NCBI GenBank assembly: GCA_963714095.1
Contig: OY970230.1
Span: forward strand, 1,023,907-1,087,906
Origin: Candidatus Gottesmanbacteria bacterium
GTDB taxonomy: Bacteria; Patescibacteriota; Microgenomatia; UBA10105; UBA927
Reading direction: 5' to 3'
DNA length: 64,000 nt
Shown: positions 2,268 through 45,887 of the stretch, one piece after another
How positions within the stretch are numbered: position 1 is the first letter of the stretch
Layout: the number at the start of each line of letters is the position of its first letter
The notes under the pieces: model-generated
What the model saw: only the letters and a program-made list of their open reading frames with translations
Told to the model about the DNA's origin: nothing
Databases searched by the model: none
Translations under genes and position numbers: made by a program

Positions 2268-2348
2268 AGGGGAGCTCTATTCTACCCCCGCAAGAGGTAC
2301 AGGGCAAGACCTATAAAAAGGTCCTTTTTAGCTTCATTTGAGCCTAAA

Positions 2349-3080: not shown

Positions 3081-3093
3081 AAGCCTCCTTAAT

Positions 3094-8753: not shown

Positions 8754-10703
<1,950 letters not shown>

Positions 10704-10780
10704 CTAAATCATTCTACAATACTTCACACGGGTTGTCTAGGGAAATCGGTACACCCGCCGATATAATGGATCTTCGGATT

Positions 10781-11185
10781 TTATTCAATAAATCCTGTAG
10801 CTTTTAATACTTTTTGAGCATGTAAGGATAAGTCAGTTGATAAAATTTCATACTTTTCAAACCATCGGGCCTGATCATATTTTCGTGCATCTACCGAAAG
10901 CCCGCTATAATCGCCACTGCAAATAAAAACATATCGTGTAATTGCGGCATCTATTTCTTCATCGGTTACTTGTGTTGTTTCTACTATAGATATGTATTGA
11001 AGGTTTAATTTTTCAAACGCATCTTTCATTAACGTGTCCGAAGGCGTTACTCCGGGTAAAATATCTCCTCCCATTAAATCCCATTTTCCCGGAGCATATG
11101 TTCTTTTTTGATTACGTCTTAAAAGTAAGACTTTCTGCTTGTTCTCATCTACGAAGACACCACTTATGGCTTCTCTTTTTCTCAT
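10781..11185 (-). CDS. NUDIX hydrolase
   Basis: Size is about 134 aa. The GKWDLMGGDILPG segment resembles a Nudix-box context. The region is AT-rich. Confidence 0.5.
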   Translation of the reverse strand: MRKREAISGVFVDENKQKVLLLRRNQKRTYAPGKWDLMGGDILPGVTPSDTLMKDAFEKLNLQYISIVETTQVTDEEIDAAITRYVFICSGDYSGLSVDARKYDQARWFEKYEILSTDLSLHAQKVLKATGFIE

Positions 11186-11820
11186 ATTTGAAGGATCGCG
11201 TTATCAACGACTAAGCGCTGGTTTACGTTGACCGCGAGTTGGGTTTGGGCGGTGAGAAGATTACGGATAAGATTGGTTAGTTGAGGTGTAGGGTGTTTCA
11301 AAAGTTCTTCCCGCGCCGCACCCAACAGTGATGTAACAAATTTTTTGGCTTCGTCGCGCGTGGCAACAAACGGTTCTAAAGTTGAAAGACGTTTCCCCGG
11401 AGACTCTTCTAATACTTTCAAAAGAATTGATGTGTCGGATTTCTGGGCAGCATCCGTAAGGCGCACGACACTCATGCGGGATAGGATAGTCGGCAGAAGC
11501 GCTTCGGGGACGCTCGTCGTCCCTATAATATATGTATGCGGCGGTGGCTCCTCGAGCGTTTTTAAGAGAGCGTTTTGTGCTTCTGGAGTCAGACGCTCAA
11601 TATCGGTAAGCAAACCAACTTTAGCCGGAGAATTTCTCTGCATAAGAACGAGTTCGCGTTGAAAGTCGCGGATCATTTCGATACCGACAGTTCCTTCTTC
11701 CGGCAGACGAATAGTATCCCACGCAGAAATTTTCCACGAGCTCGTTCGGGATACTAATTCCTTCTGTATAGACTCTTTATTGCCCCCGACAATAAGAAAC
11801 GCATGCATAATCCCTTGCAT
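11182..11820 (-). CDS. holB: DNA polymerase III delta' subunit
   Basis: The translation contains ALLKTLEEPPPHTYIIGTT, the AAA+ delta' signature, and SRM sensor residues (ILSRMSVV). Confidence 0.8.
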   Translation of the reverse strand: MQGIMHAFLIVGGNKESIQKELVSRTSSWKISAWDTIRLPEEGTVGIEMIRDFQRELVLMQRNSPAKVGLLTDIERLTPEAQNALLKTLEEPPPHTYIIGTTSVPEALLPTILSRMSVVRLTDAAQKSDTSILLKVLEESPGKRLSTLEPFVATRDEAKKFVTSLLGAAREELLKHPTPQLTNLIRNLLTAQTQLAVNVNQRLVVDNAILQI

Positions 11821-11850
11821 TATAATACAAAAACATCAATAATAAATTGT

Positions 11851-13572
11851 ATGGCCAGCTCTGCCCAACCAATATTAAATGCACTCGTTGCCGACGGTCG
11901 TCTCTCTCAGACTCAGGCGGATGCGATCCTGACGGAGACGTTGTCTACGGGTGCATCCGTTGAAGATGTTCTTATTAAAAAGCGGTTGGTATCCGATATA
12001 GACCTTGCAAAGGCAAAAGCTAAGTCAATTAATGTTCCGTTTGTTACACTGTCAGGACGCGCTATTACTCCGGCCATTGTCAATTTTATTTCCGAACCCG
12101 TTTCCCGTAAATATACACTCATCCCGTTTGAGTTTAATAGTGTAGCAAACGAACTTTCTGTCGCCATGCTGGACCCTCTGGATTTTCAGGTTTTGGAATT
12201 TATTGAAAAGAAATCCGGGAAACGCGTCCGCCCGTTTATGGCACTCAAAGACGATATTCTTTCTGCTATTGACGAAACGTATTCGCAGAATCTCGGTGAA
12301 GATGTCACGGCGGCCTTGAAGGAAACCGTGGAGCCTGAAATCAAAACATATGAGGCGGGCCGCCTGGGTGAAGTTATCCGTGAAGCGCCTATCGCACAAA
12401 TCGTTTCTGCGACCCTTGAGCAGGCTATACATCTGCGTGCATCCGATGTACATATTGAGCCTCAGTCCGGCGACACACGCGTGAGGTACCGGGTAGACGG
12501 AATTTTGCAGGAGCGGCTGGTTCTTCCCAAACGCCTGCACGATGCCGTCGTGTCCCGTATCAAAATCCTTGCGGATATGAAAATTGATGAGAAGCGTGTT
12601 CCCCAGGACGGTCGCTTTAATTTTAAAATGGGAGAGGAAGAAGTGGACCTTCGTGTATCAACACTCCCGACCGTACACGGAGAGAAAATCGTCATGCGGC
12701 TCCTGAAGAAAACCGGCGGTATTCCGACACTGCCCGAGTTGGGCCTGCGGGGTCTGGCACTCAAAAACCTGGAATCTCAAATAGCCCGTCCGCACGGCAT
12801 TATTCTTGTTACCGGACCTACCGGATCCGGTAAAACGACGACTCTTTACGCAGTACTTTCTAAGCTCAATAACAGCAGGGTAAACATTATGACGCTTGAA
12901 GACCCGGTTGAGTACGAAATTCCCGGCGTGAATCAGGTTCAGATTAATCCGGGGGCAGGCCTCACATTTGCGACAGGTTTGAGATCATTTTTGCGGCAGG
13001 ACCCTAATATCATTCTTGTCGGGGAAATCCGCGACCGTGAAACAACGGATTTGGCTATACAGGCAGCGCTAACCGGACATACCGTATTTTCCACCCTGCA
13101 CACAAATAACGCCTCGGGTGCCATTCCGCGTCTTTTAGATTTAGGGGCAGAACCGTTCCTTATTGTCTCGAGCCTCAATGCTGTCGTGGGCCAGCGCATC
13201 GCACGTAAAATTTGCCCGACGTGTAAAGAAGAATATGATCCTGACGAAGAAGTGAAAAAAGACATCAACAACGTGCTCGGCGCGTTGGTGCCGAAAGACA
13301 GCCCGCTGAAGTTGTATCGGGGAAAAACAACGGTTAACGGGGTTGAATGTGCAGCATGCGGCGGAGCCGGGTATTTAGGCAGGATCGGTATATTTGAAGT
13401 GTTCCCTGTTTCCACAGCCGTTGCCAGATTGATTGCCATACGGGCATCGATGGAAGACATTCAACAGACTGCGGTAAAAGAAGGTATGATTACCATGAAA
13501 CAGGACGGATATATGAAAGCGTTGGAAGGCGTGACGACGATTGAAGAAATCCTTCGTGTCGCGCAGGATTAG
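11851..13572 (+). CDS. pilB: Type IV pilus assembly ATPase PilB (GspE family)
   Basis: The N-terminal GSPII_E_N domain reads LSQTQADAILTE. Walker A is GPTGSGKTTTLYA, and there is a C-terminal tetracysteine motif (CPTCK...CAACGG). The start was chosen at MASSAQP; the longer ORF from 11803 overlaps holB. Confidence 0.9.
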   Translation: MASSAQPILNALVADGRLSQTQADAILTETLSTGASVEDVLIKKRLVSDIDLAKAKAKSINVPFVTLSGRAITPAIVNFISEPVSRKYTLIPFEFNSVANELSVAMLDPLDFQVLEFIEKKSGKRVRPFMALKDDILSAIDETYSQNLGEDVTAALKETVEPEIKTYEAGRLGEVIREAPIAQIVSATLEQAIHLRASDVHIEPQSGDTRVRYRVDGILQERLVLPKRLHDAVVSRIKILADMKIDEKRVPQDGRFNFKMGEEEVDLRVSTLPTVHGEKIVMRLLKKTGGIPTLPELGLRGLALKNLESQIARPHGIILVTGPTGSGKTTTLYAVLSKLNNSRVNIMTLEDPVEYEIPGVNQVQINPGAGLTFATGLRSFLRQDPNIILVGEIRDRETTDLAIQAALTGHTVFSTLHTNNASGAIPRLLDLGAEPFLIVSSLNAVVGQRIARKICPTCKEEYDPDEEVKKDINNVLGALVPKDSPLKLYRGKTTVNGVECAACGGAGYLGRIGIFEVFPVSTAVARLIAIRASMEDIQQTAVKEGMITMKQDGYMKALEGVTTIEEILRVAQD

Positions 13573-13580
13573 CGAAGCGT

Positions 13581-14636
13581 ATGGATATTAAACTATTATT
13601 TTCCGAAGCGTTACGGTTGGGAGCTTCAGACCTGCATATTGTTGTCGGGTATCCGCCGATGCTGCGCGTAGCCGGGAATTTAACGCCGGTTACGGGCAGC
13701 GCGCCGCTCACACCCGCCGATACGGAATCGATCATTTTTCCGACGTTTACGGCGGAAGAAAAAGATATCTTTTTAACCAATAAAGAGATTGATTATTCCG
13801 TGGCCTTCGGGAAGAACCGGTTCCGCGCAAACGTATATTACCAGCAGGAATCCATCGCCGCGGATTTCCGTCTCATTCCGGAGACGATCAAGTCGATTGA
13901 AGCATTGGGATTGCCAGTAATCTGCCACGAATTTGTGAAACTGCGTCAGGGATTTATTTTAGTGACCGGCCCGACCGGTCAGGGCAAATCAACGACGATT
14001 GCATCGATGATTAATACCATAAACCAGACGAGGAGCGTTCACGTCGTGACCATCGAGGACCCTATTGAGTATGTGTATCCGTCGGGTCTTTCCGTTATTT
14101 CGCAGCGTGAGATGCATCAGGATACACTCTCCTGGGGTGTGGCACTCAGAAGTGTTTTGCGCGAAGACCCGGATATTGTTCTCATCGGAGAAATGCGGGA
14201 TCTGGAAACTATTCAGGCAGCCATCACGATAGCGGAAACCGGTCATCTGGTTTTCGCGACACTTCATACCAATTCTGCAGCGCAGACAATCGACCGTATT
14301 GTTGATGTATTTCCTGATAGTCAGCAAGTGCAGATTCGACTTCAACTGTCCGCCGTGATAGAGGGGGTACTATCCGAGCGGCTTATCCCCGCCATTGCTG
14401 GCGGTCGTATTCCGGTGATGGAAATAATGACGGCAACACCTGCGATTAAAACGACTATCCGAGACGGCAAGTCTCATCTTATTGATAACATTATCCAAAC
14501 ATCAGCGGAGCTCGGGATGGTGACACTGGAAGAGGCGCTTGCCCGTGCTATCCGCGAGGGAAAGATACGTGCCGACGTTGCGCAAAGTTATGCCCTGCAT
14601 CCGGAAGAATTAGCCCGTCTTTTAAAACAAGGATAA
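13581..14636 (+). CDS. pilT: Twitching-motility retraction ATPase PilT
   Basis: Walker A is GPTGQGKSTT. Length of 351 aa with no N-terminal extension fits PilT rather than PilB. Confidence 0.9.
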   Translation: MDIKLLFSEALRLGASDLHIVVGYPPMLRVAGNLTPVTGSAPLTPADTESIIFPTFTAEEKDIFLTNKEIDYSVAFGKNRFRANVYYQQESIAADFRLIPETIKSIEALGLPVICHEFVKLRQGFILVTGPTGQGKSTTIASMINTINQTRSVHVVTIEDPIEYVYPSGLSVISQREMHQDTLSWGVALRSVLREDPDIVLIGEMRDLETIQAAITIAETGHLVFATLHTNSAAQTIDRIVDVFPDSQQVQIRLQLSAVIEGVLSERLIPAIAGGRIPVMEIMTATPAIKTTIRDGKSHLIDNIIQTSAELGMVTLEEALARAIREGKIRADVAQSYALHPEELARLLKQG

Positions 14637-14641
14637 TCATC

Positions 14642-15853
14642 ATGGCCTTTTTTCAATACAAAGCACGGGGTACGGACGGAAAAATAGTAACAGGGCTCGC
14701 AGATGCTCCGTCGCAGGATGCAGCCATACGGCTACTTCACGAAAAACAACTGTTTGTTGTCAGCATCAGGGTTTCGCGTGAGAGGCTATCATTCGCCTGG
14801 GTTCAACAATATCTTAAACGGGTAACATTCAGCGACATTGTCAATTTTACGCGGCAGCTTTCAACGATGGTGACGGCAGGACTGTCACTTCCGGAATCCC
14901 TCACGATTCTGCGAACCCAAACAACAAATCCTGCATTTGCCGATATACTTGTTGACATTGAACATCAGATTGTTTCCGGCGGAACACTCGCAAATGCCCT
15001 TGCCAAGTACCCCCGGTATTTCTCGACAACCTATATTGCCCTGGTCCGCGCAGGCGAAGCATCCGGAACACTGGATCGGATTTTGGCGAGACTCTCCGAG
15101 TCTCTTGAAGACCAGCGGGATTTCCGCGGAAAGGTGTCGGGCGCCATGATCTATCCGGTTATCATTCTTATCGGCATGGTGGGTGTCATTATTGTCATGA
15201 TGACGGTCGTCATGCCGAAACTTACCGGGTTATATACCGATATGAATATCCAGCTTCCGTGGAGCACGGTTCTTCTTATCTCCATATCAAATTTTTTTGT
15301 CCGTTTTTGGTGGCTCGTGCTGGTTGGTATAGGTGGCGCGGTATGGTTGTTCCAGTGGTGGCGAACAACCGAGTTCGGAGAACTCTTTATGGATCAGCTG
15401 GTTTTTAAAATACCGCTTTTTGGGGAACTTCAGAAAAAAATAATTCTTGTGGATTTTACCCGGACGCTCGGGATGCTCGTTTCCTCCGGCATCCATATCC
15501 TTGAGGGACTGCAGATTCTCCAGGGGTCTCTGGGGAATGTTCTCTTTCGCAACGCCGTAGGAGAGATTTCCAAAAAAGTCGAGAAAGGATTCCCGTTGGG
15601 AGATTCGTTTGCGCAGTATCCCGTGTTTCCGCCGATTGTCTCGCAGATGATGAAGGTCGGCGAGGAAACAGGGCAACTTGACGAAACGCTGAGTAAACTG
15701 TCGAAGTATTTCCAGACGGAATCAGAAACGCTTGTGAAGGGTCTGACTACGGCGATTGAACCGATTATTATGGTGGTTATGGGGTTGGGTGTGGGGTTTA
15801 TCGTCATTTCCGTCATCACGCCCATCTATAAATTAACCAGTTCGATTCAGTAG
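14642..15853 (+). CDS. pilC: Type IV pilus platform protein PilC (GspF family)
   Basis: Two T2SSF repeats separated by TM segments are present. Length is 403 aa. Confidence 0.85.
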   Translation: MAFFQYKARGTDGKIVTGLADAPSQDAAIRLLHEKQLFVVSIRVSRERLSFAWVQQYLKRVTFSDIVNFTRQLSTMVTAGLSLPESLTILRTQTTNPAFADILVDIEHQIVSGGTLANALAKYPRYFSTTYIALVRAGEASGTLDRILARLSESLEDQRDFRGKVSGAMIYPVIILIGMVGVIIVMMTVVMPKLTGLYTDMNIQLPWSTVLLISISNFFVRFWWLVLVGIGGAVWLFQWWRTTEFGELFMDQLVFKIPLFGELQKKIILVDFTRTLGMLVSSGIHILEGLQILQGSLGNVLFRNAVGEISKKVEKGFPLGDSFAQYPVFPPIVSQMMKVGEETGQLDETLSKLSKYFQTESETLVKGLTTAIEPIIMVVMGLGVGFIVISVITPIYKLTSSIQ

Positions 15854-15916
15854 GAAAACTGATACTTGACAAGGGTCGACGCAGCTGTTACACCTAAATA
15901 AAGGAGATTATTTATT

Positions 15917-16423
15917 ATGAAAACTGCTCGTGGTTTTACACTTATTGAACTGCTTATTGTTATTGCGCTTTTAGGTGCGCTTGCCATAGGACTCTTGGCG
16001 ACAATTGATCCGTTTGAACAGCTCAAAAAAGGCCGTGACACGTCAACCAGAAATACCGTGTCGGAATTTTATAATGCAAATTTGCGGTATTATTCCACCA
16101 AATCAGATTGGCCATGGACGTCTCTGGGTAGCGCGACACCTTTAGCCGATCCTATCATGTCTGATGCGGCGACGGGCGCGATTACGAAACTTATTAATGC
16201 CGGTGAATTAAAGGCAGGTTTTACCGGATATGTGGGAGCCGGAACGCTGTCGACCATCTATGTTTCATCGACAGGGCTGGGAGATCTGCATGTCTGTTAT
16301 ATGCCGGAATCCAAAGGGTTCCAGATCGACGCAAATACGATCTATGATCCAAGCGGCGGGACGAGTATAACCACCTGCAAAGCGACCGGTGGGACAGACC
16401 CCTGCTACTACTGCATTCAGTAA
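15917..16423 (+). CDS. Type IV major pilin (PilA-like)
   Basis: The N-terminus has the prepilin motif KTARGFTLIELLIVIALLG (G|FTLIE cleavage/methylation site). Four cysteines near the C-terminus could form the D-region disulfides. A strong SD (AAGGAG) lies 10 nt upstream of the start. Confidence 0.85.
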   Translation: MKTARGFTLIELLIVIALLGALAIGLLATIDPFEQLKKGRDTSTRNTVSEFYNANLRYYSTKSDWPWTSLGSATPLADPIMSDAATGAITKLINAGELKAGFTGYVGAGTLSTIYVSSTGLGDLHVCYMPESKGFQIDANTIYDPSGGTSITTCKATGGTDPCYYCIQ

Positions 16424-18439
16424 ATGGATAATCAAGCAAGAAATCGCAAAAACAGCAGTGTTTTTGCGATTCTTGTTGGTTGTATAGCATTTGTTTCTTT
16501 CCTCCTATTTCAGGCACAGGGCATTGTGGGCGGAGACTCAGGAGATGTGGTGACGGCCGCAGTCACCTTTGGTGTGGCGCACCCCCCTGGGTATCCCCTC
16601 TATACATTTCTTGGCTGGATTGTTTCCAGATTACCAATATTTACTGCTTCATGGCGGGTGGGACTCCTCTCTTCTGTGCCGCATGCAATTGTTATCGCAC
16701 TGGTCTACTGGCTTGTTTCTTCGCTCACGAAGCGCAGAGCCGTCGGATTATTCAGCGCATTGCTACTCCTTTCCAATTACCTGTTTTTTCTCTACAGCGT
16801 GACGCCGGAAGTATTCGCGCTGTTGGACTTGTTTGTTATTCTCCTTATCTGTCTTCTTATCCGCTGGCGACAGACTAAAAAAAATCGGTTTCTTGTTATC
16901 GCATCGTTTGTGTTTGGATTATCACTTGCCAATCAGCAGACTATATTGTTTTTGGTGCCGGCTTTGTTTTACTGGATTTGGCGGCAACGATTCCTTCTGC
17001 CAAAACAATCACAACGATTCCGTTTTTCTGTTGCGTTTTGGTTTTTGGTCGGGTTAGTTCCGTATGCGTACGTATTCATCGCGGCCCGCGGGCACTCAAT
17101 CATCAATTGGGACAGGCCCGTGGATCTCGCCGGTTTTATCCGTCTGATGACGCGGGCGGATTACGGCACGTTTGTGTCCGGCGGGTTATTTGGTGACCTG
17201 GTGATTCAGCGCTTTTTGCAGATTCAGGCCTACGCGCAGTTTATTCTTATGGATTTTACCTGGATTGGAGTTGTCCTTATCCTGACGGGGTTTTTCTCCC
17301 TGTGGAAGCGGGATCGGCCTCTTTGTCTATTCTTTTTGGTTGCACTGCTCTTTTTGGGCCCATTCTTTTTCTTTTATGCAAGTTTTCCTTTGCTTAACCG
17401 GTTTATGCTCGGCACGTATGAGCGGTTTTTATTGCCGTCGTATGTAGTGTTTGCCATTCTTTCCGGTATCGGGCTTGCAGAGCTGGTAGAACGCCTCAGG
17501 TCAGTCTTGAGCCGGCGCATGGCCCGTCTTGTTTTTGGGATCGGGTGTATTGTCATCCTCCTGTATCCGCTCAGCCAGTTGGGGGTCACTCTGTGGCGGT
17601 TTTACGGATTACCCGCAGACAGAACTGCAGATAATCTGGGTATGGATGTGCTTTCGCCGCTGCCTTCCGGCAGCATTCTGTTATTAGGCCGCGATATGAC
17701 GCTCTTTAGTACGCAATATATGCGCTATGCGCTCAATTTCCGGCCGGATGTCATTGCCATACACCAGAGCCGGTTGGCCTCCCCTGATTATCAGGTGACC
17801 CTCCACGCGATATTCCCCGATATCACATTTGCGGCAACCGGCGATGCAACGGTCAATCTCGTGACATCCCAGTACCCGAAGCGGCCGATATTTTCATATG
17901 CACCGCTCCCTGTCGGAGCAGGATGGAGCTGGGTGCCGTATGGGTTAACCTATAAATTAGTTGACCAAAAGACGGCGCCGAACGCAGGCACGATGTATAA
18001 AGAAAATCTTGCCATCTGGAAAACATTGCACGATCCTGCTACAGGAATTCTTTCACGGTACAATCACCTGATGCTTTCCGATGCCCGCGACGTATATGCG
18101 GGTGCGCATATTGCGCTTGGGAGGACGCTAGCGCTTGCCGGCATGCTGGACGAGGCATATGGCCAGTTTAGTGCGGCTGCCAAAATTGCGGGGGACGCAG
18201 AACTTGCAAATGCATATAAGGATGAGGGGGCGGTGTTGCTGCTTCAAAAAAAATGTACGGCTGCGCTCACCGCGTTTACTGCGGCACAAAACGCAAGTAT
18301 CGTACCGGATAGCATCATTACGTATTATGAGGCGAGTACGTACCGCGATTGCCTCGGCGATGCAGCACACGCGAAGAAGCTTTTTGACGAATATGACGCC
18401 GAGAATAAACAAACCCAAACACCATTAGGACAATTGTGA
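16424..18439 (+). CDS. DUF2723/TMEM260-like (PMT-like GT-C) membrane glycosyltransferase with C-terminal TPR repeats
   Basis: The protein has 11 or more TM helices. The first extracytoplasmic loop carries an acidic GDSGDVV motif and AHPPGYPLYTF. The C-terminal 150 aa are TPR-like. The family assignment was made from memory and is inference. Confidence 0.5.
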   Translation: MDNQARNRKNSSVFAILVGCIAFVSFLLFQAQGIVGGDSGDVVTAAVTFGVAHPPGYPLYTFLGWIVSRLPIFTASWRVGLLSSVPHAIVIALVYWLVSSLTKRRAVGLFSALLLLSNYLFFLYSVTPEVFALLDLFVILLICLLIRWRQTKKNRFLVIASFVFGLSLANQQTILFLVPALFYWIWRQRFLLPKQSQRFRFSVAFWFLVGLVPYAYVFIAARGHSIINWDRPVDLAGFIRLMTRADYGTFVSGGLFGDLVIQRFLQIQAYAQFILMDFTWIGVVLILTGFFSLWKRDRPLCLFFLVALLFLGPFFFFYASFPLLNRFMLGTYERFLLPSYVVFAILSGIGLAELVERLRSVLSRRMARLVFGIGCIVILLYPLSQLGVTLWRFYGLPADRTADNLGMDVLSPLPSGSILLLGRDMTLFSTQYMRYALNFRPDVIAIHQSRLASPDYQVTLHAIFPDITFAATGDATVNLVTSQYPKRPIFSYAPLPVGAGWSWVPYGLTYKLVDQKTAPNAGTMYKENLAIWKTLHDPATGILSRYNHLMLSDARDVYAGAHIALGRTLALAGMLDEAYGQFSAAAKIAGDAELANAYKDEGAVLLLQKKCTAALTAFTAAQNASIVPDSIITYYEASTYRDCLGDAAHAKKLFDEYDAENKQTQTPLGQL

Positions 18440-20564: not shown

Positions 20565-20619
20565 GAAGGCAAGTGTACCATACTTGACATAGTCTGGTTA
20601 AGATCCGACACTGGATAGT

Positions 20620-21354
20620 ATGATGATTGTTTTTCTTTTTATTCTCGGACTGGCGGTCGGATCGTTTGCCAACGTATTAATTGATCGGTTACCCAAAGGA
20701 GAGAGTATTGTGTGGGGACGTTCTCATTGTGATTACTGCAAAAAACCCCTTCGGTGGTATGAACTGTTTCCCGTCGTTTCTTATGTGATACAGGCAGGCC
20801 GTTGCCGGCGGTGCAGGAAAAAGCTTTCGGTACAATATCCGATTATTGAATTTGTTACAGGGATCGGATTTGCCCTGTTGTATCCCGGGTACATAGCGTA
20901 TTATGCACTGTTTATTTCTTTGCTTGTTATTTTTATCGCTGATCTCAAATATCAGATTATTCCCGACAGTATGATTGTTCTCGGATTTGCAGCGGCCATA
21001 CTGTATTGGTATGAAAAAAGATTGTCCTTTGCCGGCATTTCGGAGTCTTTAGTAACAGGGTTTATTTCTTTCGCAGCTTTTTATGCACTTTGGGCACTCA
21101 CACGGGGGAAAGGACTGGGGTTCGGCGACGTAAAATTTGCGCCTCTCATGGGCGTCCTGTTGGGATTTCCCGGCGTTGTTTTTGCCTTCTACGTCGCTTT
21201 CTTGACGGGCGCTTTGGCGGCTGTCATACTGATGATAGGAAGGAAAAAGACCTGGAAAAGCAAAATTGCATTCGGGCCGTTTCTGGTAGCAGGAACGGTG
21301 GCTGCACTTATATGGCAACCACAACTCATATCATTATGGAGGATGTATATATGA
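20620..21354 (+). CDS. pilD: Prepilin peptidase PilD (A24 family)
   Basis: The N-terminal Zn-binding tetracysteine motif (CDYC...CRRC), 8 TM helices and the catalytic GFGDVK motif are present. Confidence 0.9.
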   Translation: MMIVFLFILGLAVGSFANVLIDRLPKGESIVWGRSHCDYCKKPLRWYELFPVVSYVIQAGRCRRCRKKLSVQYPIIEFVTGIGFALLYPGYIAYYALFISLLVIFIADLKYQIIPDSMIVLGFAAAILYWYEKRLSFAGISESLVTGFISFAAFYALWALTRGKGLGFGDVKFAPLMGVLLGFPGVVFAFYVAFLTGALAAVILMIGRKKTWKSKIAFGPFLVAGTVAALIWQPQLISLWRMYI

Positions 21355-21803
21355 AAAAACGAGGGTTTACGTTGATGGAACTTCTTATCGTTATTGCCAT
21401 TATGGGTATTCTTGTATCAATAGGTGTCGCCTCCTATGCCACGGCCCAAAAAAAGGGCCGGGATGCACGAAGAATTTCGGATATGAAAGCTGTGCAAAAT
21501 GCTTTTGAACAATATGATGCTGTTAATAGCGGCTCATATCCGGCTACGTGTGGCGCAATAACAGCAGACCCGACATACTTGCCCGGCGGGTTTCCGACGG
21601 ACCCAAAAAACTTCACGGGCTCCGATGCATCGACGACCTTTGTCTATGATTTTAGTGACCCACATTGCTCGGCTTCATCCTACTGTTTTTGCGCGCACCT
21701 TGAGTCCGGAACGGGAAATGAGAGCGCAGATCCGGGTTCTCCTGCCTGCACGTTTACATCATTAGGAACAGAACAATACTATTGTGTCGGAAATTTACAA
21801 TAA
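21351..21803 (+). CDS. Type IV pilin-like protein
   Basis: The N-terminus is MKKRGFTLMELLIVIAIMGIL with a Cys-rich C-terminus. The start lies inside a longer out-of-frame ORF (21090) and overlaps the pilD stop (ATGA). Confidence 0.8.
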   Translation: MKKRGFTLMELLIVIAIMGILVSIGVASYATAQKKGRDARRISDMKAVQNAFEQYDAVNSGSYPATCGAITADPTYLPGGFPTDPKNFTGSDASTTFVYDFSDPHCSASSYCFCAHLESGTGNESADPGSPACTFTSLGTEQYYCVGNLQ

Positions 21804-21810
21804 TCCAGCC

Positions 21811-22275
21811 ATGAAACATGCGGTACATCCGGGGAATGGATTTACTTTAATAGAAATCTTGGTGGTAGCAACCATCATTGCCGTATTGACCGCGATCGGC
21901 GTGGTATCGTACGGGTCCATTAACTTGCGGACGCGGAATGCCAAGCGGAAAAGTGATCTGGAGCAGGTGCGAAGCGCGCTTGAGATGTATAGGATTGATA
22001 ATGGGTCATATCCGGGAACGAGCACGAACTTTATCACATTATCAAGCCTTGATCCTGGTGACGGCACTGGTCCGTTGGTTACAACCTATCTGCCTTCAAT
22101 TCCCAGGGATCCGGAAAGCACGGTGGCAACACCGATAGAATATTATTACCGCGTCATTGGATCCGGTCCCCCATATTATAGTTATTGTCTCTGCGGGCAG
22201 CTGGAAAGTAGTTCCGGTGACTACTGCGGTGTAGCGCATATAGCTAATTGTAATTATTATCTGAAAAATCCTTAA
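21811..22275 (+). CDS. Type IV pilin-like protein
   Basis: The N-terminus reads MKHAVHPGNGFTLIEILVVATIIAVL, a prepilin motif. Confidence 0.8.
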   Translation: MKHAVHPGNGFTLIEILVVATIIAVLTAIGVVSYGSINLRTRNAKRKSDLEQVRSALEMYRIDNGSYPGTSTNFITLSSLDPGDGTGPLVTTYLPSIPRDPESTVATPIEYYYRVIGSGPPYYSYCLCGQLESSSGDYCGVAHIANCNYYLKNP

Positions 22276-22277
22276 CT

Positions 22278-22766
22278 ATGGAGTCTTCTTCACAATCTCA
22301 CGGGTTTACCTTAATTGAGATTGTTGTGAGCGTCGCAATTCTAGCGCTCCTCAGCGGTCTTTTTATTGCCAATTATAACGGGTTCAGTAATTCTCAGACT
22401 GTCCAGCAGACTGCGTCGGACGTGATTGCAAACTTGCAGTCAGCCAGGACAATGGCATCCTCCGGTTTGAAACCAGCGGGGTGCAACACGCTCGTCGGTT
22501 ATATTGTAAATTTCTCTAATTCCTCCTATACAGTACAGGCGAGTTGCCAGTCAGGACTGGTCGGCGGGATAAATACGTATACGCTCCCGATGGGGGTAAC
22601 GTTTGCTTCCCCCACTCCCAACCCTATTACATTCTATGCTCTTGATGGCGGAGCATCGGCAAACCAGACAATATCTCTCGTCGGGAACGGAGTTACTGCA
22701 AAAGTATCGGTATCTTCTTCGGGGGTGGTATCGGATTTTATTCCGACGCCGACTCCGACGCCGTAA
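22278..22766 (+). CDS. Type IV minor pilin-like protein with C-terminal Pro-Thr repeat
   Basis: The N-terminus has SHGFTLIEIVVSVAILALL. The protein ends in FIPTPTPTP. Confidence 0.75.
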   Translation: MESSSQSHGFTLIEIVVSVAILALLSGLFIANYNGFSNSQTVQQTASDVIANLQSARTMASSGLKPAGCNTLVGYIVNFSNSSYTVQASCQSGLVGGINTYTLPMGVTFASPTPNPITFYALDGGASANQTISLVGNGVTAKVSVSSSGVVSDFIPTPTPTP

Positions 22767-22781
22767 TAGACGGAAAAACGT

Positions 22782-23240
22782 ATGAAAATATATGAAGTAG
22801 GTAAACGGGGGCAGACATTGGTAGAAATGATAGTCATTGTCGGTATGGTGGTACTCTTGGCTACCGGTGTAGTTGTCGGAACAACGGTTTCGCTCAGCCG
22901 TTCGGAAACGTCAAAGGTGCGCAGCAACGCTGCTGCCTATGCCCAGTCCGGGATTGAACTGGCGCGCGCCCTTCGTGATACCAGCTGGGACGCTTTTGCA
23001 GCGTTAGGGACTCCTACCGCGAATACCTATTGTGTGGGATCCGACGGATCGTTTGGTCAGGCACAAATTTCGTGTACGGCATTTAATATTGATAATACAT
23101 ATGTTCGATCCCTTACACTTGAATTAACCATAGTTTCCGGCGTCCCTACGGTGAAAGTCACATCAAAGGTTTCATGGGGAGACGTAAGTAATCCGGCGAA
23201 TGCAATTCAGTTGATGACATATCTGACACAGTGGAAATAA
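22782..23240 (+). CDS. Type IV minor pilin-like protein
   Basis: The N-terminus has KRGQTLVEMIVIVGMVVL, a prepilin-like motif with Q at +1. Confidence 0.65.
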   Translation: MKIYEVGKRGQTLVEMIVIVGMVVLLATGVVVGTTVSLSRSETSKVRSNAAAYAQSGIELARALRDTSWDAFAALGTPTANTYCVGSDGSFGQAQISCTAFNIDNTYVRSLTLELTIVSGVPTVKVTSKVSWGDVSNPANAIQLMTYLTQWK

Positions 23241-23245
23241 TCTTT

Positions 23246-23794
23246 ATGGCGACACATTCACAAAAGGGATTTACATTGCTGGAGATGTTAGTTTCCGTCA
23301 TTATTCTGGCGGTTGTCGCAATCCTTATCGTGCAGGTATTGTTTACGACGACACATGTCAATCAAAAAACCAAGGTCCTGAGTGATATAAAACAAAACGG
23401 AAATTTCACTCAGGATATTATCGGTAGAATGGTGCGTTCAGCCCAAACAATTGAAACATCCTGTGTAAACGGCGCAACGTCAGCGTCCGTAGCCCAAATT
23501 ACAAATCCCGACGATAATGTGACCACTTTTACCTGTCTTACGGACGGGAACGTTGCACGTATCGCATCGGTAAGCGCTGGAGTCGTTGTTTATTTAACTG
23601 CCGGGAACGTGACGGTAAGTAGTTCGGGTGGTGCGACCTGTGACGACAGTTCGCTTACGTTTTCTTGTCCGCCGTCAAGCGGAATTCAGGATACACTCAC
23701 CGTTTCATTTACGCTTGTTCCAAAGGGAGTTTCCGGCAGTGAGTATGATATGGGGAGCACAACGTTTCAAAGCACTGTAGGCTTGCGAAATTAA
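23246..23794 (+). CDS. Type IV minor pilin-like protein
   Basis: The N-terminus reads MATHSQKGFTLLEMLVSVIILAV. The start was trimmed from a GTG at 23231. Confidence 0.75.
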   Translation: MATHSQKGFTLLEMLVSVIILAVVAILIVQVLFTTTHVNQKTKVLSDIKQNGNFTQDIIGRMVRSAQTIETSCVNGATSASVAQITNPDDNVTTFTCLTDGNVARIASVSAGVVVYLTAGNVTVSSSGGATCDDSSLTFSCPPSSGIQDTLTVSFTLVPKGVSGSEYDMGSTTFQSTVGLRN

Positions 23795-23824
23795 TGTGCG
23801 GTTACTACAATATAAAGGGAGGAT

Positions 23825-24688
23825 ATGGTGTATAAAAAAGAGACACAATCAGGTCAGGTTGCATTGATGGCGCTTCTTGTGATGACGATTGCCGCGACGG
23901 TCGGGCTGTCTCTTATTGCGCGCACCACAACCGATATTTCCGTGACAAGAAACACCGAGGAATCAACACGGGCGTTTTCTGCAGCAGAAGCGGGTGTTGA
24001 AGAAACGTTAAGATCAGGTGTAGCCTCGTCCGGTACAATAGATCCGACTTATGGAGTGAGTTATACGGCCTCAATTACTCCCGTGAGCGGTACCGCGACA
24101 AGTCCATACGTATTTCCTCAAAAAACCTTGAACGAGGATACCGAAACCGTGTGGCTGGTTAGTCATTCCGCCGACGGTACGATTATAGAATCACCGACGT
24201 ATACTGCAAATACTATTAATGTATGCTGGAGCAGTGAGTCAACTACACCAGCCATCGTTGTCTCTATCCTCTACAAAAAGGCAAGTGACGGATCGTACAG
24301 GGTTGCGAGAAATGCGTATGATTCGAATCGTTCCCGTGCCACAGATTTAGTCACGGGAAATAACTTTTCCGCTCCGGTAGCTGCAACCGGCTGTCCAAGT
24401 ACAACCGCACTTGGTACGAAAATTACATTTTCTGATTATGGAATTGTTCCGGCCAATGACACTCTGATAGCCCTTCGAATTCGTCCGGTGTATGCCGGAG
24501 CACTTCTTGCGGTAGCGCCGGCCGCGGCAGTGCCTGCGCAGAATCTTCCTGTTCAGGGTAACAGCATTCAGTCCGTGGGTGTAACAACAAGCGGCGTGAA
24601 CAGAAAAATCACCGTGTATCAGCAATACAGGGCGCCGGAATCAATTTTTGATTACGCGCTGTATAGTGAAGGGTCACTTTCACAATAA
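23825..24688 (+). CDS. PilX-like large minor pilin
   Basis: The N-terminus has SGQVALMALLVMTIAATVGL, a prepilin-like motif. The protein is 287 aa with a Thr/Ser-rich body. Confidence 0.6.
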   Translation: MVYKKETQSGQVALMALLVMTIAATVGLSLIARTTTDISVTRNTEESTRAFSAAEAGVEETLRSGVASSGTIDPTYGVSYTASITPVSGTATSPYVFPQKTLNEDTETVWLVSHSADGTIIESPTYTANTINVCWSSESTTPAIVVSILYKKASDGSYRVARNAYDSNRSRATDLVTGNNFSAPVAATGCPSTTALGTKITFSDYGIVPANDTLIALRIRPVYAGALLAVAPAAAVPAQNLPVQGNSIQSVGVTTSGVNRKITVYQQYRAPESIFDYALYSEGSLSQ

Positions 24689-24703
24689 TAAGATTCTGCC
24701 CAT

Positions 24704-25726
24704 ATGAATTTATCGCTCGGACTTGATATCGGATCGCACACGATTAAGCTTATTGAACTTGGGTTTGAGGGAGATTCCGTGGTACTTTCAGCGGCCGGCA
24801 TCATGCCGACCCCGGAAAAAACATCCGGATCAGCGCAGTCAGCAGACGCAGAGAATATGGCTCAGGCCATTAAGATCCTTGTAAAAGATACGGGGGTCAA
24901 ATCAAAGGAAGTACACATTGCGCTTCCCGAATCTAAAGTTTTTACCAGGGTGATTGAAGTACCCACGCTCTCGCAACGGGAGCTTGCGTCCGCCATTCGT
25001 TGGGAAGCAGAACAATATATTCCATTGCCTTTGGATCAGGTGAATTTAGATTTCACAATACTGCGCGACTCCAAAGCGACTGGAACCAATAAGATGGAAG
25101 TACTTTTGGTGGCGGCGCCAAAAACGCTGGTTGACAACTATCTGAGCATTCTGGAAATTGCGGAGCTGTCTCCCATAGCTGCCGAAACGGAGATTATAGC
25201 AACCTCACGGGCGCTTACGAGGTCAGTATCCAATGTTCACAGTGTCATGATCGTATCACTCGGCGCATTGACTACCGATATAGCTATAGAAAGAAATGAA
25301 GTATTGACATTTACCCGCTCATTGTCTGCAGGCGGCGATGCATTTACCCGTGCGCTTGCGCAGAGCCTTGATTTCAACTTGACGCAGGCAGAAGAATATA
25401 AACGCGCGTACGGGATACAGCAGGACAAACTTGAAGGAAAAATTGCCGCTGCCGCAAAACCCATCACCGATACAATTGTCGGCGAACTGAAACGCGCGCT
25501 TATCTTTTATCAGGAGAAATATAAAGATGAACATGTACAGCTCGTTTTACTTTCTGGGGGTACGGCGCGGTTACCCGGCCTTGTGGAGTATTTGGCGCAG
25601 GCGCTAGGCGTCGAAGTACAACTTGCAAATCCGTGGGTCGGAATTGCCCGTGCGCCCCGGTTTAACGTTCTTACGACGGAAGGGCCGAATTTTTGTGTGG
25701 CGGTAGGATTGGCCCTCCGTAGGTAA
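24704..25726 (+). CDS. pilM: Type IV pilus assembly protein PilM (actin-like ATPase)
   Basis: The N-terminus LGLDIGSHTIKLIEL and the paired actin-fold motifs are present. Length is 340 aa. Confidence 0.85.
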   Translation: MNLSLGLDIGSHTIKLIELGFEGDSVVLSAAGIMPTPEKTSGSAQSADAENMAQAIKILVKDTGVKSKEVHIALPESKVFTRVIEVPTLSQRELASAIRWEAEQYIPLPLDQVNLDFTILRDSKATGTNKMEVLLVAAPKTLVDNYLSILEIAELSPIAAETEIIATSRALTRSVSNVHSVMIVSLGALTTDIAIERNEVLTFTRSLSAGGDAFTRALAQSLDFNLTQAEEYKRAYGIQQDKLEGKIAAAAKPITDTIVGELKRALIFYQEKYKDEHVQLVLLSGGTARLPGLVEYLAQALGVEVQLANPWVGIARAPRFNVLTTEGPNFCVAVGLALRR

Positions 25727-25733
25727 ACATAGT

Positions 25734-26279
25734 ATGGATCCCGCGAATAAAATAAATCTTATTCAAAACAGGACTGAGGTATCGCCGCAACTCGTGATGG
25801 TGATAGCACTCCTTCGCAGATTGAGTCTTTGGGTTCTGGTTATTTTTATCGTAAGCGGTATCCTCGTCGGAGGGATGTATTATTATTTCAGCATTCGCAA
25901 TGAGGAGTTAGCCGCAAAACAACAGCAACTGTCTCAGGTTATCGCACAAAGTACGAGGACAGAAGGATTATTAGTTTCGGTTACCCAGCGTGCTGCGTTG
26001 ACGAAAAAAATTTTAGATATCCAAAAACCTGTCGGAATGGTGTTTGATACGGTCGTCCAGTTTGTTTCTCCGGGGAAGATATCCAACATTTCGTTTGATG
26101 ACACTGACACCGTTTCTCTCATGGTTCATGTGAATTCAATTCCGGAGGGTATTTTCATGACTGACGATCTTGTGAACCTGGCTGCTATGAATCTTGTACG
26201 GAAGCCACAGCTCGTTTCTTTTTCGATAGGGCCGGATGGGAGTATTGATATGGGATTGTCGTTTGTTGCAGTATTCTAA
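25734..26279 (+). CDS. pilN: PilN-like bitopic membrane protein
   Basis: The protein has a single N-terminal TM, then a coiled-coil, then a periplasmic domain. Its position after pilM supports the call. Confidence 0.6.
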   Translation: MDPANKINLIQNRTEVSPQLVMVIALLRRLSLWVLVIFIVSGILVGGMYYYFSIRNEELAAKQQQLSQVIAQSTRTEGLLVSVTQRAALTKKILDIQKPVGMVFDTVVQFVSPGKISNISFDDTDTVSLMVHVNSIPEGIFMTDDLVNLAAMNLVRKPQLVSFSIGPDGSIDMGLSFVAVF

Positions 26280-26284
26280 TTCTT

Positions 26285-27016
26285 ATGCAGTTAAAAAGGT
26301 TTTTTCGCCGGTATCAAGCGCTGATTATTTCAATTGTAATCCTCTTGGTGTGCGGGTTTGGTTTTGCGATGGGAATAGTTCCGCTTGCGCAAAAAATTGT
26401 AGATTTGAATAATGAATTTATCACCTCTTCTCAAGAGGTAAACGGTTTGAACAGTAAAACAGCGCTCTTGCAGGCTGTGAATGAATATACGATGAGAAGC
26501 GATTTACTAACTCTGTTATCCGCTGTTCCTTCCGATAAGTCACTCCCGACAGTATTAAGCACGCTTGACGGGTTGGCCGCCCAGACAGGTGTTTCCTTGG
26601 ATACAGTATCATTGGCGAAGGGAGGCTTTCTCTCCACCGCGTCGGCAGAGCCATTAACTGCTGATGAACAGGCTATTGGAACGAACATTATACCGTTTAC
26701 GGTAGGTTTTACAGGGACATTCGATCAGGTTCATGCATTTTTGACGGCAAGCACATCAGTTCGCCGGTTGTTCCGTGTTCAGACATTTGATGTTTCATTT
26801 GGTCAGGACAATACGGTAGCAGCTAACGTTTCGATGGAAGCCTTTTACTCCCCTCTTCCCACAGCAATCGGCGCTGTTGGTCAGCCGATTACCAGTTTAT
26901 CGGGTACGGACGCACGCGTCATTGCATCGGTGTCTGCGATGCAACTATTGGTGCAGCCATCCTCATTGCCTCCGCCATCAGGAGGGGCCGGCAAATCCGA
27001 CCCGTTCAGCTTATAG
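26285..27016 (+). CDS. pilO: PilO-like bitopic membrane protein
   Basis: The protein has a single TM followed by a coiled-coil. Its position after pilN supports the call. Confidence 0.55.
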   Translation: MQLKRFFRRYQALIISIVILLVCGFGFAMGIVPLAQKIVDLNNEFITSSQEVNGLNSKTALLQAVNEYTMRSDLLTLLSAVPSDKSLPTVLSTLDGLAAQTGVSLDTVSLAKGGFLSTASAEPLTADEQAIGTNIIPFTVGFTGTFDQVHAFLTASTSVRRLFRVQTFDVSFGQDNTVAANVSMEAFYSPLPTAIGAVGQPITSLSGTDARVIASVSAMQLLVQPSSLPPPSGGAGKSDPFSL

Positions 27017-45863: not shown

Positions 45864-45887
45864 ATTATAAGATATATTGGCAGGATG

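Follow-up and report, generated by a model that had tools for sequence, protein, structure and literature searches.

The stretch of DNA analysed here (64 kb, referred to as the window) comes from Candidatus Gottesmanbacteria, an ultrasmall bacterium of the CPR, and at 11851-27016 it encodes a type IV pilus machine, an assignment of which we are practically certain. The locus is best explained, with moderate confidence, as a retractile monoderm-type type IV pilus with an embedded pilin-glycosylation cassette. This cassette is formed by two large membrane GT-C genes (GT1 and GT2, about 4.1 kb or 27% of the interval), whose products probably add sugars to pilus subunits. As a whole, the locus is a type IV pilus gene cluster without a secretin, of the kind usual in the CPR. 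Pilus gene sets without PilQ were described in these bacteria by Meheust et al. (2019) and likewise by Kadnikov et al. (2020; PMC7143001); such loci have been published since 2019, hence that part is not new. A preliminary description of the locus had proposed the secretin-less, monoderm interpretation and overlooked both glycosyltransferase genes; our results support its being right yet already known, with the sole unusual part of the locus missed. Glycosyltransferase genes within the pilus locus are not mentioned by Meheust et al. (2019), by Kadnikov et al. (2020) or in the consulted study of Saccharibacteria type IV pili.

Gene identities were established mostly by profile searches, and the set named in the preliminary description was recovered: PilB, PilT, PilC, a major pilin, PilD, six more prepilins, PilM, a PilN-like ORF and PilO (Table 1). 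The same genes had been described as contiguous and on one strand, but this part did not stand, as GT1 (plus strand) and GT2 (minus strand) lie between the major pilin gene and pilD. Close homologues bearing names were from Candidatus Gottesmanbacteria or the Patescibacteria group. The start of pilB is the ATG at 11851 (a longer ORF from 11803 overlaps holB, and 573 aa are also called in identical Logan contigs). PilB scored 541 bits against the PilB and 547 bits against the GspE model of NCBIfam, and the GspF/PilC models span the full length of PilC; in both proteins these scores were below the equivalog cut-offs. The PilD translation shows the CxxC...CxxC and GxGDxK motifs. The pilN-like ORF had no HMM match in Pfam or NCBIfam and is a candidate PilN by its position and a short motif, I7-N8-L9, which is invariant in 14 orthologues and which we take to resemble the INLL PilM-binding motif of PilN. 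No Secretin or PilP family of Pfam was matched among the scanned ORFs of the window, including every ORF of at least 200 aa, in agreement with the reported lack of PilQ and PilP. The component set is of the monoderm type and, with the CPR source, fits the CPR-like envelope proposed earlier. Monoderm and CPR loci (Gram-positive type IV pili; T4P-1 and T4P-2 of Saccharibacteria) resemble it in combining, within one locus, PilB/T/C/D/M/N/O with a small, abundant pilin and a number of minor pilins, without PilQ or PilP.

Table 1. Features of the type IV pilus locus (positions in the window; a slash stands after the Gly at -1 of prepilin motifs).
Feature	Position	Strand	Product	Evidence
pilB	11851..13572	+	pilus assembly ATPase, 573 aa	Pfam T2SSE E=8e-126, MshEN E=2e-15
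pilT	13581..14636	+	retraction ATPase	NCBIfam TIGR01420 (PilT/PilU family) 415 bits (cut-off 319), full length
pilC	14642..15853	+	inner-membrane platform protein	Pfam T2SSF, two stretches, E=1.8e-64
pilA1	15917..16423	+	candidate major pilin, 168 aa	N_methyl E=6e-7; MKTARG/FTLIE
hairpin	16428..16483	+	long hairpin	MFE -27.6 kcal/mol, z=-6.5, 0/200 shuffles equally stable
GT1	16424..18439	+	TMEM260/DUF2723-family GT-C, C-terminal TPR domain, 671 aa	Pfam TMEM260-like 87.9 bits (cut-off 24.2), PMT_2
GT2	18318..20564	-	YfhO-family GT-C membrane glycosyltransferase, 748 aa	Pfam YfhO 58.3 bits (cut-off 28.5)
pilD	20620..21354	+	prepilin peptidase/N-methyltransferase	Pfam A24_N_bact E=1.6e-32, Peptidase_A24 E=4.8e-14
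pil2	21351..21803	+	pilin-like, 150 aa	N_methyl E=5e-8; motif scan, MKKRG/FTLME
pil3	21811..22275	+	GspG-like pilin, 154 aa	T2SSG E=3.7e-6, N_methyl
pil4	22278..22766	+	GspH-like minor pilin, 162 aa, PTPTPTP end	N_methyl E=6e-7; GspH E=8e-4
pil5	22782..23240	+	minor pilin, 152 aa	G/QTLVE; weak HMM matches, Class_IIIsignal E=0.004
pil6	23246..23794	+	minor pilin, 182 aa	N_methyl E=8e-8
pilX-like	23825..24688	+	large minor pilin, 287 aa	G/QVALM; PilX_N E=0.0066, below cut-off
pilM	24704..25726	+		Pfam PilM_2 E=7e-63; NCBIfam TIGR01175 238 bits (cut-off 133)
pilN-like	25734..26279	+	181 aa	flanked by pilM and pilO; a single N-terminal membrane helix; I7-N8-L9
pilO	26285..27016	+		Pfam PilO 26.0 bits (cut-off 22), E=1.1e-5

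The GT1 profile matched the solved structures of human TMEM260 (9rql, E=6e-62) and of TPR proteins (E=1e-13), and both enzymes have the same order of GT-C membrane core, Rossmann-like region and TPR domain. The relationship is distant: the sequence-level alignment covers residues 21-469 only, and the TPR part matches generic TPR proteins. GT1 residues D38, H53, R244, Y247, R334 and D424 align with D52, H67, R264, Y267, R355 and D441 of TMEM260, where mutating any of the six abolishes or strongly reduces activity and D441 is the catalytic base. All six are invariant in 15 GT1 homologues. With its catalytic residues conserved, GT1 is very probably an active protein O-glycosyltransferase, as predicted from its sequence. 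The TPR domain of TMEM260 binds extended acceptor peptides. The acceptors of TMEM260 are the IPT domains of plexins, cMET and RON, whereas that of GT1 would be a type IV pilin, a substrate towards which we narrowly lean; the donor lipid of GT1 would be a bacterial polyprenyl phosphate, unlike that of the human enzyme. Bacterial relatives of TMEM260 receive only a passing mention in the literature, as 'distant homologs in bacteria'.

Scanning the GTDB species representatives with the GT1 profile yielded 80 related loci. GT1 was located in type IV pilus loci in 33 of the 80, and a pilin gene ended at most about 180 nt upstream of GT1 in 31 of these 33. By their record titles, the pilus-embedded loci include four CPR candidate phyla (Gottesman-, Woese-, Levyi- and Curtissbacteria), with GT1 identities from 54% down to 26%, and a rough NJ tree groups the pilus-linked GT1s in a single clade. 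Neither pil genes nor prepilin motifs were found in the 42 non-CPR loci with GT1 homologues (689 kb). The pilin-GT1 pairing was retained in loci L031, L032, L038 and L039, where the holB-pilBTC block is inverted (probably a single event), and in L021, L023 and L040, where another pilin type lies upstream of GT1. The second glycosyltransferase slot is non-orthologous (YfhO-like here, PMT_2-like in L025 and L031, an extra PMT_2 in L026). In L034, a distance of 15 nt separates a GT1 paralogue from the pilin gene that ends a second pilB/pilC operon; in L037 (Levyibacteriota), another paralogue has no nearby pil genes. The gene arrangement is conserved; as the whole region from gyrB and holB through the pil genes to trmD is collinear across the lineages compared, the adjacency of pilin and GT1 may partly reflect inheritance rather than selection.

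GT2 and GT1 converge and overlap by 122 nt at their 3' ends, and GT2 and pilD are transcribed divergently. Like the YfhO proteins of the YfhO/CsbB/GtcA systems of extracytoplasmic glycosylation (B. subtilis LTA, Listeria WTA), GT2 falls into Pfam YfhO, and its TM1 is followed by a conserved acidic loop (TPD(F/Y)GxSD, kept in at least 90% of 24 orthologues). Unlike those systems, GT2 has no adjoining gene for a partner GT-A (CsbB-like) or a GtcA/GtrA flippase, and ORF scans revealed no polyprenyl-phosphate-sugar synthase or GtrA-type flippase in the window. The YfhO proteins characterised so far modify teichoic acids. GT2 also weakly resembles PgfM2 (NCBIfam, E=0.002), a component of the Pgf system (PgfM1/PgfM2) by which S. 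mutans glycosylates proteins.

The candidate major pilin PilA1 has four conserved Cys and variable loops rich in Ser, Thr and Gly. Its gene is conserved across 26 loci and is preceded by a strong AAGGAG Shine-Dalgarno sequence, with TTGACA upstream; 1884 homologues were found at E<=1e-3, named 'prepilin-type' in Gottesmanbacteria. The AF2 model of PilA1 is lollipop-like (pLDDT 66), with low-confidence loops at 70-78, 131-134, 145-149 and 156-158, and conserved Ser/Thr positions of the pilin occur in loops of low AF2 confidence. The TAA of pilA1 is directly abutted by the ATG of GT1 (16424, one base after the stop). The hairpin begins 5 nt past the pilA1 stop codon, within the first 20 codons of GT1, and canonical stem-plus-T-run terminators occupy the equivalent place after the pilin in L014, L023, L035 and L040. 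It is a candidate attenuator or mRNA-stabilising stem following the major pilin gene; as it is terminator-like and lies between pilA1 and GT1, co-expression of the two is not required.

This arrangement suggests an analogy, with a different enzyme family, to the pilin-accessory cassettes of P. aeruginosa, pilA-tfpO (group I) and pilA-tfpW-tfpX (group IV). In the latter, the GT-C enzyme TfpW transfers a lipid-linked sugar to pilin Ser/Thr on the periplasmic side. In the Pseudomonas cassettes, as here, a hairpin or terminator follows the pilin gene, and there it attenuates the accessory gene. GT1 (TMEM260/DUF2723 with TPR) and GT2 (YfhO-like) are of other families than TfpO and TfpW, and neither matched the TfpO-type Wzy_C family in Pfam. 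The two cases also differ in that the present host is a monoderm CPR bacterium, its cassette is inserted in the main locus, with pilA on one side and pilD on the other, and pilin glycosylation is a prediction from the genes. O-glycosylation of Saccharibacteria pilins is a sequence prediction only, and its authors call glycosylation processes unexplored.

In the mechanism that we propose, PilD would cleave and methylate the seven prepilins, and PilB would polymerise PilA1 on the PilC/PilM/PilN/PilO membrane platform, probably primed by the GspG/H/I/J/K-like minor-pilin set including the 287-aa PilX-like head; PilT would retract the fibre. On the external side of the membrane, GT1 would take a polyprenyl-phosphate sugar (the kind of sugar, like the pilin substrate and the role of the hairpin, being inferred) and attach it through O-linkage to Ser/Thr of extended pilin loops just after translocation. 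GT2 would, in the present lineage, add to or extend the GT1 modification, and the hairpin would hold accessory expression under the pilin level.

It is possible, though rather doubtful, that both GT-Cs are unrelated to the pilus and modify something else in the envelope (lipids, S-layer or further surface proteins, or a polymer resembling teichoic acid), their placement being inherited gene order. Synteny is just as strong for the housekeeping flanks (gyrA/B, holB, trmD, rpsP, rnc) as for the GT genes, and the known YfhO substrates, the opposite strand of GT2 and the hairpin parting pilA1 from GT1 all favour this reading, although true pilin-accessory cassettes typically have a terminator behind the pilin gene. 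CPR genomes are rich in GT-C genes, and several paralogues occur per genome, some of them away from pili (L037, and a DUF2079 gene elsewhere in the window). However, the pairing outlasts the pilBTC inversion and the replacement of both the pilin type and the second GT-C, an independent GT1 paralogue again adjoins a pilin in a different operon (L034), and TMEM260, to which GT1 is closest among characterised enzymes, is an O-mannosyltransferase specific for proteins that binds its peptide acceptors through the TPR domain.

A short pseudopilus (Com-like DNA uptake or T2SS-like secretion) in place of a long surface pilus is unlikely. It would agree with the about equal scores of PilB and PilC against the GspE/GspF and PilB/PilC models, with the minor pilins resembling GspG and GspH, with the DNA uptake proposed for CPR type IV pili in the literature and with a recent preprint showing that the thin filaments of a CPR cell belong to another kind of pilus (Pam) and not to type IV pili. 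The locus nevertheless encodes a full-length PilT above the family cut-off, alongside PilM, PilN and PilO. PilT with PilM/N/O is the signature of retractile T4a-type pili, and Com and T2SS loci are not known to carry PilT. Moreover, twitching and host binding were demonstrated for Saccharibacteria type IV pili, and the retractile, glycosylated pilus that we favour leaves room for a role in DNA uptake. A diderm organism encoding a secretin and PilP elsewhere is highly improbable, even though the window is 64 kb of a roughly 1.09-Mb genome and many diderms keep pilMNOPQ separate from other pil genes: directly behind pilM, pilN and pilO come a convergent gene of unrelated function and trmD, with no pilP or pilQ, likewise in the homologous loci reaching trmD, the source is a CPR bacterium, and a survey of thousands of CPR genomes found no PilQ.

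A six-frame motif scan of the 64 kb revealed exactly seven prepilin motifs, as counted before, all at 11851-27016, and the measured sizes of the proteins (150-287 aa) bear out the wide spread reported. The class III prepilin motif ascribed to them held in six of the seven (G-1 and E+5), while the 287-aa protein keeps G-1 and carries Met in place of Glu at +5; GspK/PilX-type proteins are likewise known to lack Glu5. The earlier idea of a tip or minor-pilin complex fits the weak GspG, GspH and PilX_N matches, which lie in the canonical G-H-I-J-K order. The pil2 start and the pilD stop overlap by 4 nt, and pil3 is also called as 154 aa in L001. The GspH match of pil4 (E=8e-4) is slightly below the Pfam cut-off; its PTPTPTP tail is genuine, located at the C-terminus, and absent in the listed pil4 orthologues (about 20 loci). 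G10, Q11 and E15 of pil5 are invariant in 16 orthologues, and the matches of the pil6 profile in the PDB are limited to pilin N-terminal helices. The 287-aa pilin has homologues that JGI/NCBI annotate as 'Tfp pilus assembly protein PilX'. Its AF2 model (pLDDT 86), which had no significant Foldseek match in the PDB, consists of a long N-terminal helix (9-64) and a beta-sandwich head. This pilin may be a tip or adhesin subunit; in known CPR type IV pili, too, the candidate adhesin is a large minor pilin of the PilX type whose head is rich in beta structure.

ORF listing and HMM scans confirmed that the interval 11851-27016 encodes a type IV pilus locus, T4a-like and of the monoderm type. The preliminary description had placed all its genes contiguously on one strand; we found that two large polytopic membrane genes, GT1 and GT2, separate pilA1, the gene of the candidate major pilin, from pilD. 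The PilB match is to be read at the family level only, because its NCBIfam scores (541 bits for the PilB model, 547 bits for the GspE model) are both under the equivalog cut-offs. The HMM scans (Pfam, NCBIfam) gave no match for the pilN-like ORF, which was assigned as a putative pilN on the basis of its location between pilM and pilO, one membrane helix at the N-terminus and an N-terminal I-N-L triplet that is invariant in 14 orthologues. This triplet resembles INLL, the PilM-binding motif of PilN. Rfam and tRNA scans gave no match inside the pilus locus. When the locus was searched for sigma-70 promoters and terminators, the numbers obtained matched or nearly matched those expected from shuffling, and they were set aside. 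Downstream of pilO come an unrelated convergent gene and trmD, as in the homologous loci that reach trmD.

Genes of the type IV pilus locus, with window coordinates and the matches on which the assignments rest
Feature	Position	Strand	Evidence
pilB, assembly ATPase (GspE/PilB family)	11851-13572	+	Pfam T2SSE E=8e-126, full length, plus MshEN
pilT, retraction ATPase	13581-14636	+	TIGR01420, 415 bits vs cut-off 319
pilC, polytopic platform protein PilC/GspF	14642-15853	+	Pfam T2SSF, two stretches, E=1.8e-64
pilA1, candidate major pilin, 168 aa	15917-16423	+	
GT1, 671 aa	16424-18439	+	Pfam TMEM260-like (PF11028) 87.9 bits vs cut-off 24.2; PMT_2
GT2, 748 aa	18318-20564	-	Pfam YfhO (PF09586) 58.3 bits vs cut-off 28.5
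pilD, prepilin peptidase	20620-21354	+	A24_N_bact plus Peptidase_A24
pil2, prepilin ORF	21351-21803	+	
pil3, prepilin ORF	21811-22275	+	GspG match E=4e-6, weak
pil4, prepilin ORF	22278-22766	+	GspH match E=8e-4, weak
pil5, prepilin ORF	22782-23240	+	
pil6, prepilin ORF	23246-23794	+	
PilX-like protein, 287 aa	23825-24688	+	PilX_N match E=0.007, weak
pilM	24704-25726	+	TIGR01175, 238 bits vs cut-off 133
pilN-like ORF	25734-26279	+	position, topology, N-terminal I-N-L
pilO	26285-27016	+	Pfam, 26 bits vs cut-off 22

No Pfam match to Secretin (PF00263) or PilP was present in the window ORFs scanned, including every ORF of at least 200 aa, and the reported absence of PilQ and PilP from the window was thus borne out. 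Proteins identical to those of the window are encoded on an NCBI/ENA contig of 1,088,247 nt and on two Logan contigs. The monoderm, secretin-less reading is also supported by the named homologues of the window proteins, which come from Candidatus Gottesmanbacteria or the Patescibacteria group, and by the CPR literature: PilB/T/C/M/N/O/D are co-localised without PilQ in many CPR genomes (Meheust et al. 2019), and the same PilQ-less set was described in a closed Microgenomates genome (Kadnikov et al. 2020). Type IV pili without a secretin are well established as characteristic of the CPR, in which roles in host attachment and DNA uptake are ascribed to them, and the pilus locus itself adds little. 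The presence of pil genes does not by itself establish which filaments the cell displays, because one CPR species has thin filaments that represent a different, non-type-IV pilus (2026 preprint); CPR-specific donor-strand 'Pam' pili are present in Microgenomatia too (2026 preprint).

The seven pilin-like genes claimed previously correspond to exactly seven prepilin motifs detected by a six-frame scan of the 64 kb, all of them in the pilus locus and invariant in orthologue alignments. The class III signal peptide ascribed to these genes held for Gly-1 (7/7) and for Glu+5 in 6/7, and failed at the latter position in the 287-aa PilX-like protein (Met+5). This protein lacks Glu5, as GspK/PilX-type proteins do, and the weak GspG, GspH and PilX_N matches of pil3, pil4 and the last gene follow the canonical pseudopilin order. 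The AlphaFold model of the PilX-like protein, obtained with 34 database homologues, was confident (pLDDT 86) and showed a helix (9-64) followed by a beta-sandwich. A Foldseek comparison with the PDB gave no significant match for it (best E=0.008, TM <0.25); the lectin, CBM and archaellin matches were weak and were set aside. Profiles of pil5, pil6, pilX and pilN searched against PDB sequences matched only pilin N-terminal helices. The PTPTPTP tail noted earlier is present at the C-terminus of pil4 (22745-22766) and is particular to this genome, the listed pil4 orthologues (approximately 20 loci) mostly ending in ...D.G.Q. As a conserved glycosylation site it was rejected, being absent from these orthologues. 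In one homologous locus (L007, 14866-16964), several additional pilin paralogues follow pilD.

The pilA1 gene directly follows pilC; it has a TTGACA upstream and a strong ribosome-binding site, AAGGAG. Its family is large (1884 database matches), with the first 60 residues almost invariant and four conserved cysteines. The pilA1 model (pLDDT 66), weaker than that of the PilX-like protein, has a lollipop shape made of a helix and a sheet. Its segments of low confidence (70-78, 131-134, 145-149 and 156-158) are the Ser/Thr/Gly-rich variable loops.

The unreported and interesting content of the locus is the cassette formed by the pilin gene and GT1, which encodes a TMEM260-like glycosyltransferase. 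A profile of 15 GT1 homologues matched human protein O-mannosyltransferase TMEM260 (PDB 9rql) over positions 13-467 (E=6e-62; E=9e-46 with GT1 as a single sequence), and profile positions 554-620 matched TPR proteins (E=1e-13). The TPR domain of TMEM260 binds an acceptor peptide in extended form and delivers it to the catalytic pocket; mutating D52, H67, R264 or Y267 abolishes activity, the R355 mutation strongly reduces it, and D441 is the catalytic base (2026 TMEM260 structure preprint). By pairwise alignment these six residues correspond to GT1 D38, H53, R244, Y247, R334 and D424, all of which are invariant in the 15-sequence alignment. Judged from these alignments, GT1 belongs to the TMEM260 family and has an intact active site. 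In a full-text literature search, DUF2723, the family name shared by GT1 and TMEM260, was found only in the TMEM260 discovery paper, which mentions no more than 'distant homologs in bacteria'; the same search gave no paper combining DUF2723 with pilin.

The GT1 ATG abuts the pilA1 TAA with zero spacer. A GT1 profile scan of one genome per GTDB species gave the 80 best matches, around which pil genes were placed by tblastn. Among these 80 loci, 33 are embedded in type IV pilus loci, many of them titled Gottesman-, Woese-, Levyi- or Curtissbacteria, with GT1 identities between 26% and 54%. For 31 of these 33, the distance from the end of an upstream pilin gene to GT1 is at most approximately 180 nt. 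The pairing is kept despite an inverted holB-pilB-pilT-pilC block (L031, L032, L038 and L039; the inversion is probably a single event), and equally in L021, L023 and L040, which have a different pilin type upstream of GT1. GT1 paralogues of one sub-clade (L034, L036 and L041) are found close to other pilin genes. The L034 paralogue (region 10001-19658) ends 15 nt from the final pilin gene of a second operon, a divergent pilB-pilC-pilin unit in which no pilT or pilMNO was visible. This second operon also encodes a 679-aa protein with the prepilin motif G|QSLIE.

The gyrB-to-trmD region is collinear across these lineages, so that inheritance, not selection, may account for part of the conserved adjacency. 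CPR genomes often carry GT-C paralogues, at least one of which (L037) is located away from pili. The inverted blocks, the exchanged pilin types and the paralogue sub-clade speak for a link between GT1 and the pilin, as do the 42 homologue loci from outside the CPR (689 kb), which contained zero pil genes and zero prepilin motifs. In a rough neighbour-joining tree the pilus-linked GT1s group together as a single clade, separate from the non-CPR enzymes. GT1 may be the first representative of a TMEM260-family clade that spans the CPR and is dedicated to type IV pilin O-glycosylation, a tentative reading whose probability we place slightly short of even.

A hairpin of approximately 25 bp (16428-16483, plus strand; MFE -27.6 kcal/mol, z=-6.5) begins 5 nt after the pilA1 stop, within the first 20 codons of GT1. 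Four homologous loci (L014, L023, L035 and L040) have canonical stem-plus-T-run terminators at the same position. In the pilin-accessory cassettes of Pseudomonas aeruginosa, a Rho-independent terminator after the pilin gene is thought to attenuate the accessory gene; TfpO and TfpW, the products of such accessory genes, glycosylate the pilin and confer protection against pilus-specific phages (PMC11841053). The present locus resembles these cassettes in having a glycosyltransferase gene directly after the major pilin gene and a hairpin or terminator at the junction, where we infer a comparable role for the hairpin. However, neither GT1 nor GT2 has a Wzy_C match, unlike TfpO, which is Wzy_C/O-antigen-ligase-like. 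TfpW is itself a GT-C enzyme and is set apart by family assignment, GT1 and GT2 belonging to the unrelated TMEM260-like/PMT_2 and YfhO families. The locus is therefore analogous to the TfpO/TfpW cassettes and not a member of them.

GT2, a YfhO-family GT-C gene, is convergent with GT1, the two overlapping by 122 nt (18318-18439), and divergent from pilD across a 55-nt spacer, so the locus comprises at least three transcription units. In other genomes the 3' overlap of GT1 and GT2 measures 53-77 nt (L003, 11856-11932; L004, 11925-11977; L005, 11934-11995), and this conserved antisense arrangement could couple their expression. An acidic loop, TPD(F/Y)GxSD, follows membrane helix 1 of GT2, and its residues T35, P36, D37, G39 and D42 are each kept in at least 90% of 24 orthologues. 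Characterised YfhO proteins modify teichoic acids. The second glycosyltransferase slot is YfhO-like in loci titled Gottesman-, Woese- or Curtissbacteria. It is filled by a PMT_2-family GT-C gene of approximately 390 aa on the plus strand in L025 (12009-13184; titled Levyibacteriota) and L031 (11917-13068; titled 'Gammaproteobacteria'), and is empty in L027, L030 and L032, where pilD directly follows GT1. L026, titled Curtissbacteria, has an extra PMT_2 gene (4860-6368). In L004, a Y1 transposase (14122-14799) is inserted between GT2 and pilD.

We propose that the prepilins would enter the membrane with their heads outside, where the TPR and Rossmann-like domains of GT1 would bind an extended Ser/Thr-containing pilin loop. 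We infer a pilin substrate and a sugar that would be a hexose, transferred to this loop from a polyprenyl-phosphate donor. GT2, or the alternative second GT-C of other lineages, could then add or extend sugars. PilD would subsequently cleave and methylate the prepilin. Fibre assembly by PilB, PilC and PilMNO would start from a primer of minor pilins, and PilT would retract the fibre. The conserved hydroxyl positions of pilA1 are T69 (after a conserved PW), S132 (PESK), T141 and T149/S150 (GG-T-S before Cys154); these are candidate acceptors, and any choice among them is speculation. No gene of the donor pathway (GT2-family polyprenyl-phosphate-sugar synthase, GtrA flippase) was found in the window or in the gaps of L026 and L029; these gaps encode additional GT-Cs along with a methyltransferase and unknown proteins.

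If GT1 does represent such a dedicated CPR-wide clade, the pili by which ultrasmall episymbiotic bacteria contact their hosts would be sugar-coated through an extracytoplasmic pathway using lipid-linked monosaccharides, and the variable second GT-Cs would diversify the pilus glycan. The TMEM260 O-mannosylation pathway of eukaryotes would then have an equivalent in bacteria, one whose natural substrate is defined. TMEM260 is a human disease gene whose bacterial homologues have no known substrate, and the modification of CPR pilins has been explicitly described as unexplored; a pilin gene abutting the GT1 gene offers a directly testable candidate enzyme-substrate pair. By analogy, the variable second glycosyltransferase hints at a diversifying pressure such as that exerted by phages in Pseudomonas.

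The remainder of the window carries housekeeping genes (gyrA, H+-PPase, gyrB, holB, trmD, rnc, nusB, recG, tyrS, a class A PBP, pheS/T, thrS, trigger factor and five tRNAs). The membrane H+-pyrophosphatase gene (6674-8698, minus strand) lies between gyrA and gyrB, as in L003 and L004; the corresponding slot of L005 is taken by a soluble inorganic pyrophosphatase (2081-2599), which looks like a non-orthologous replacement in place. The PheRS beta chain (39228-40790, minus strand) has only 520 aa, with B3_4, B5 and core domains and no match to the N-terminal tRNA-binding or C-terminal FDX-ACB domains that are usual in bacterial PheT. Runs of ORFs of approximately 230-540 aa without significant Pfam match occur at 45018-47897, 51347-52947 and 55900-59094, one ORF showing weak CARDB and RcpC matches. 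A DUF2079 membrane protein gene (60065-61699, plus strand), which we take to be possibly another GT-C-like enzyme, is located away from the pilus locus and beside a 537-aa ORF with no Pfam match (57481-59094, minus strand). The tRNA-Leu and tRNA-Lys genes (52738-52820 and 55703-55776, minus strand) are overlapped by the maximal ORFs 52210-52947 and 54405-55730, the true starts of which are therefore further downstream. A tyrosine recombinase (Phage_integrase) ORF is found at the window start (9-671, plus strand).

In L003, gyrB is split into four ORFs (1692-3617), from frameshifts or assembly errors. Loci collinear with Gottesmanbacteria or Levyibacteria pilus regions are present in many third-party MAG records under the title 'uncultured Gammaproteobacteria bacterium' (L009, L014, L015, L016, L018, L021, L024, L028, L031-L036 and L038-L041 carry this title), and these titles look like placeholder or wrong taxonomy.
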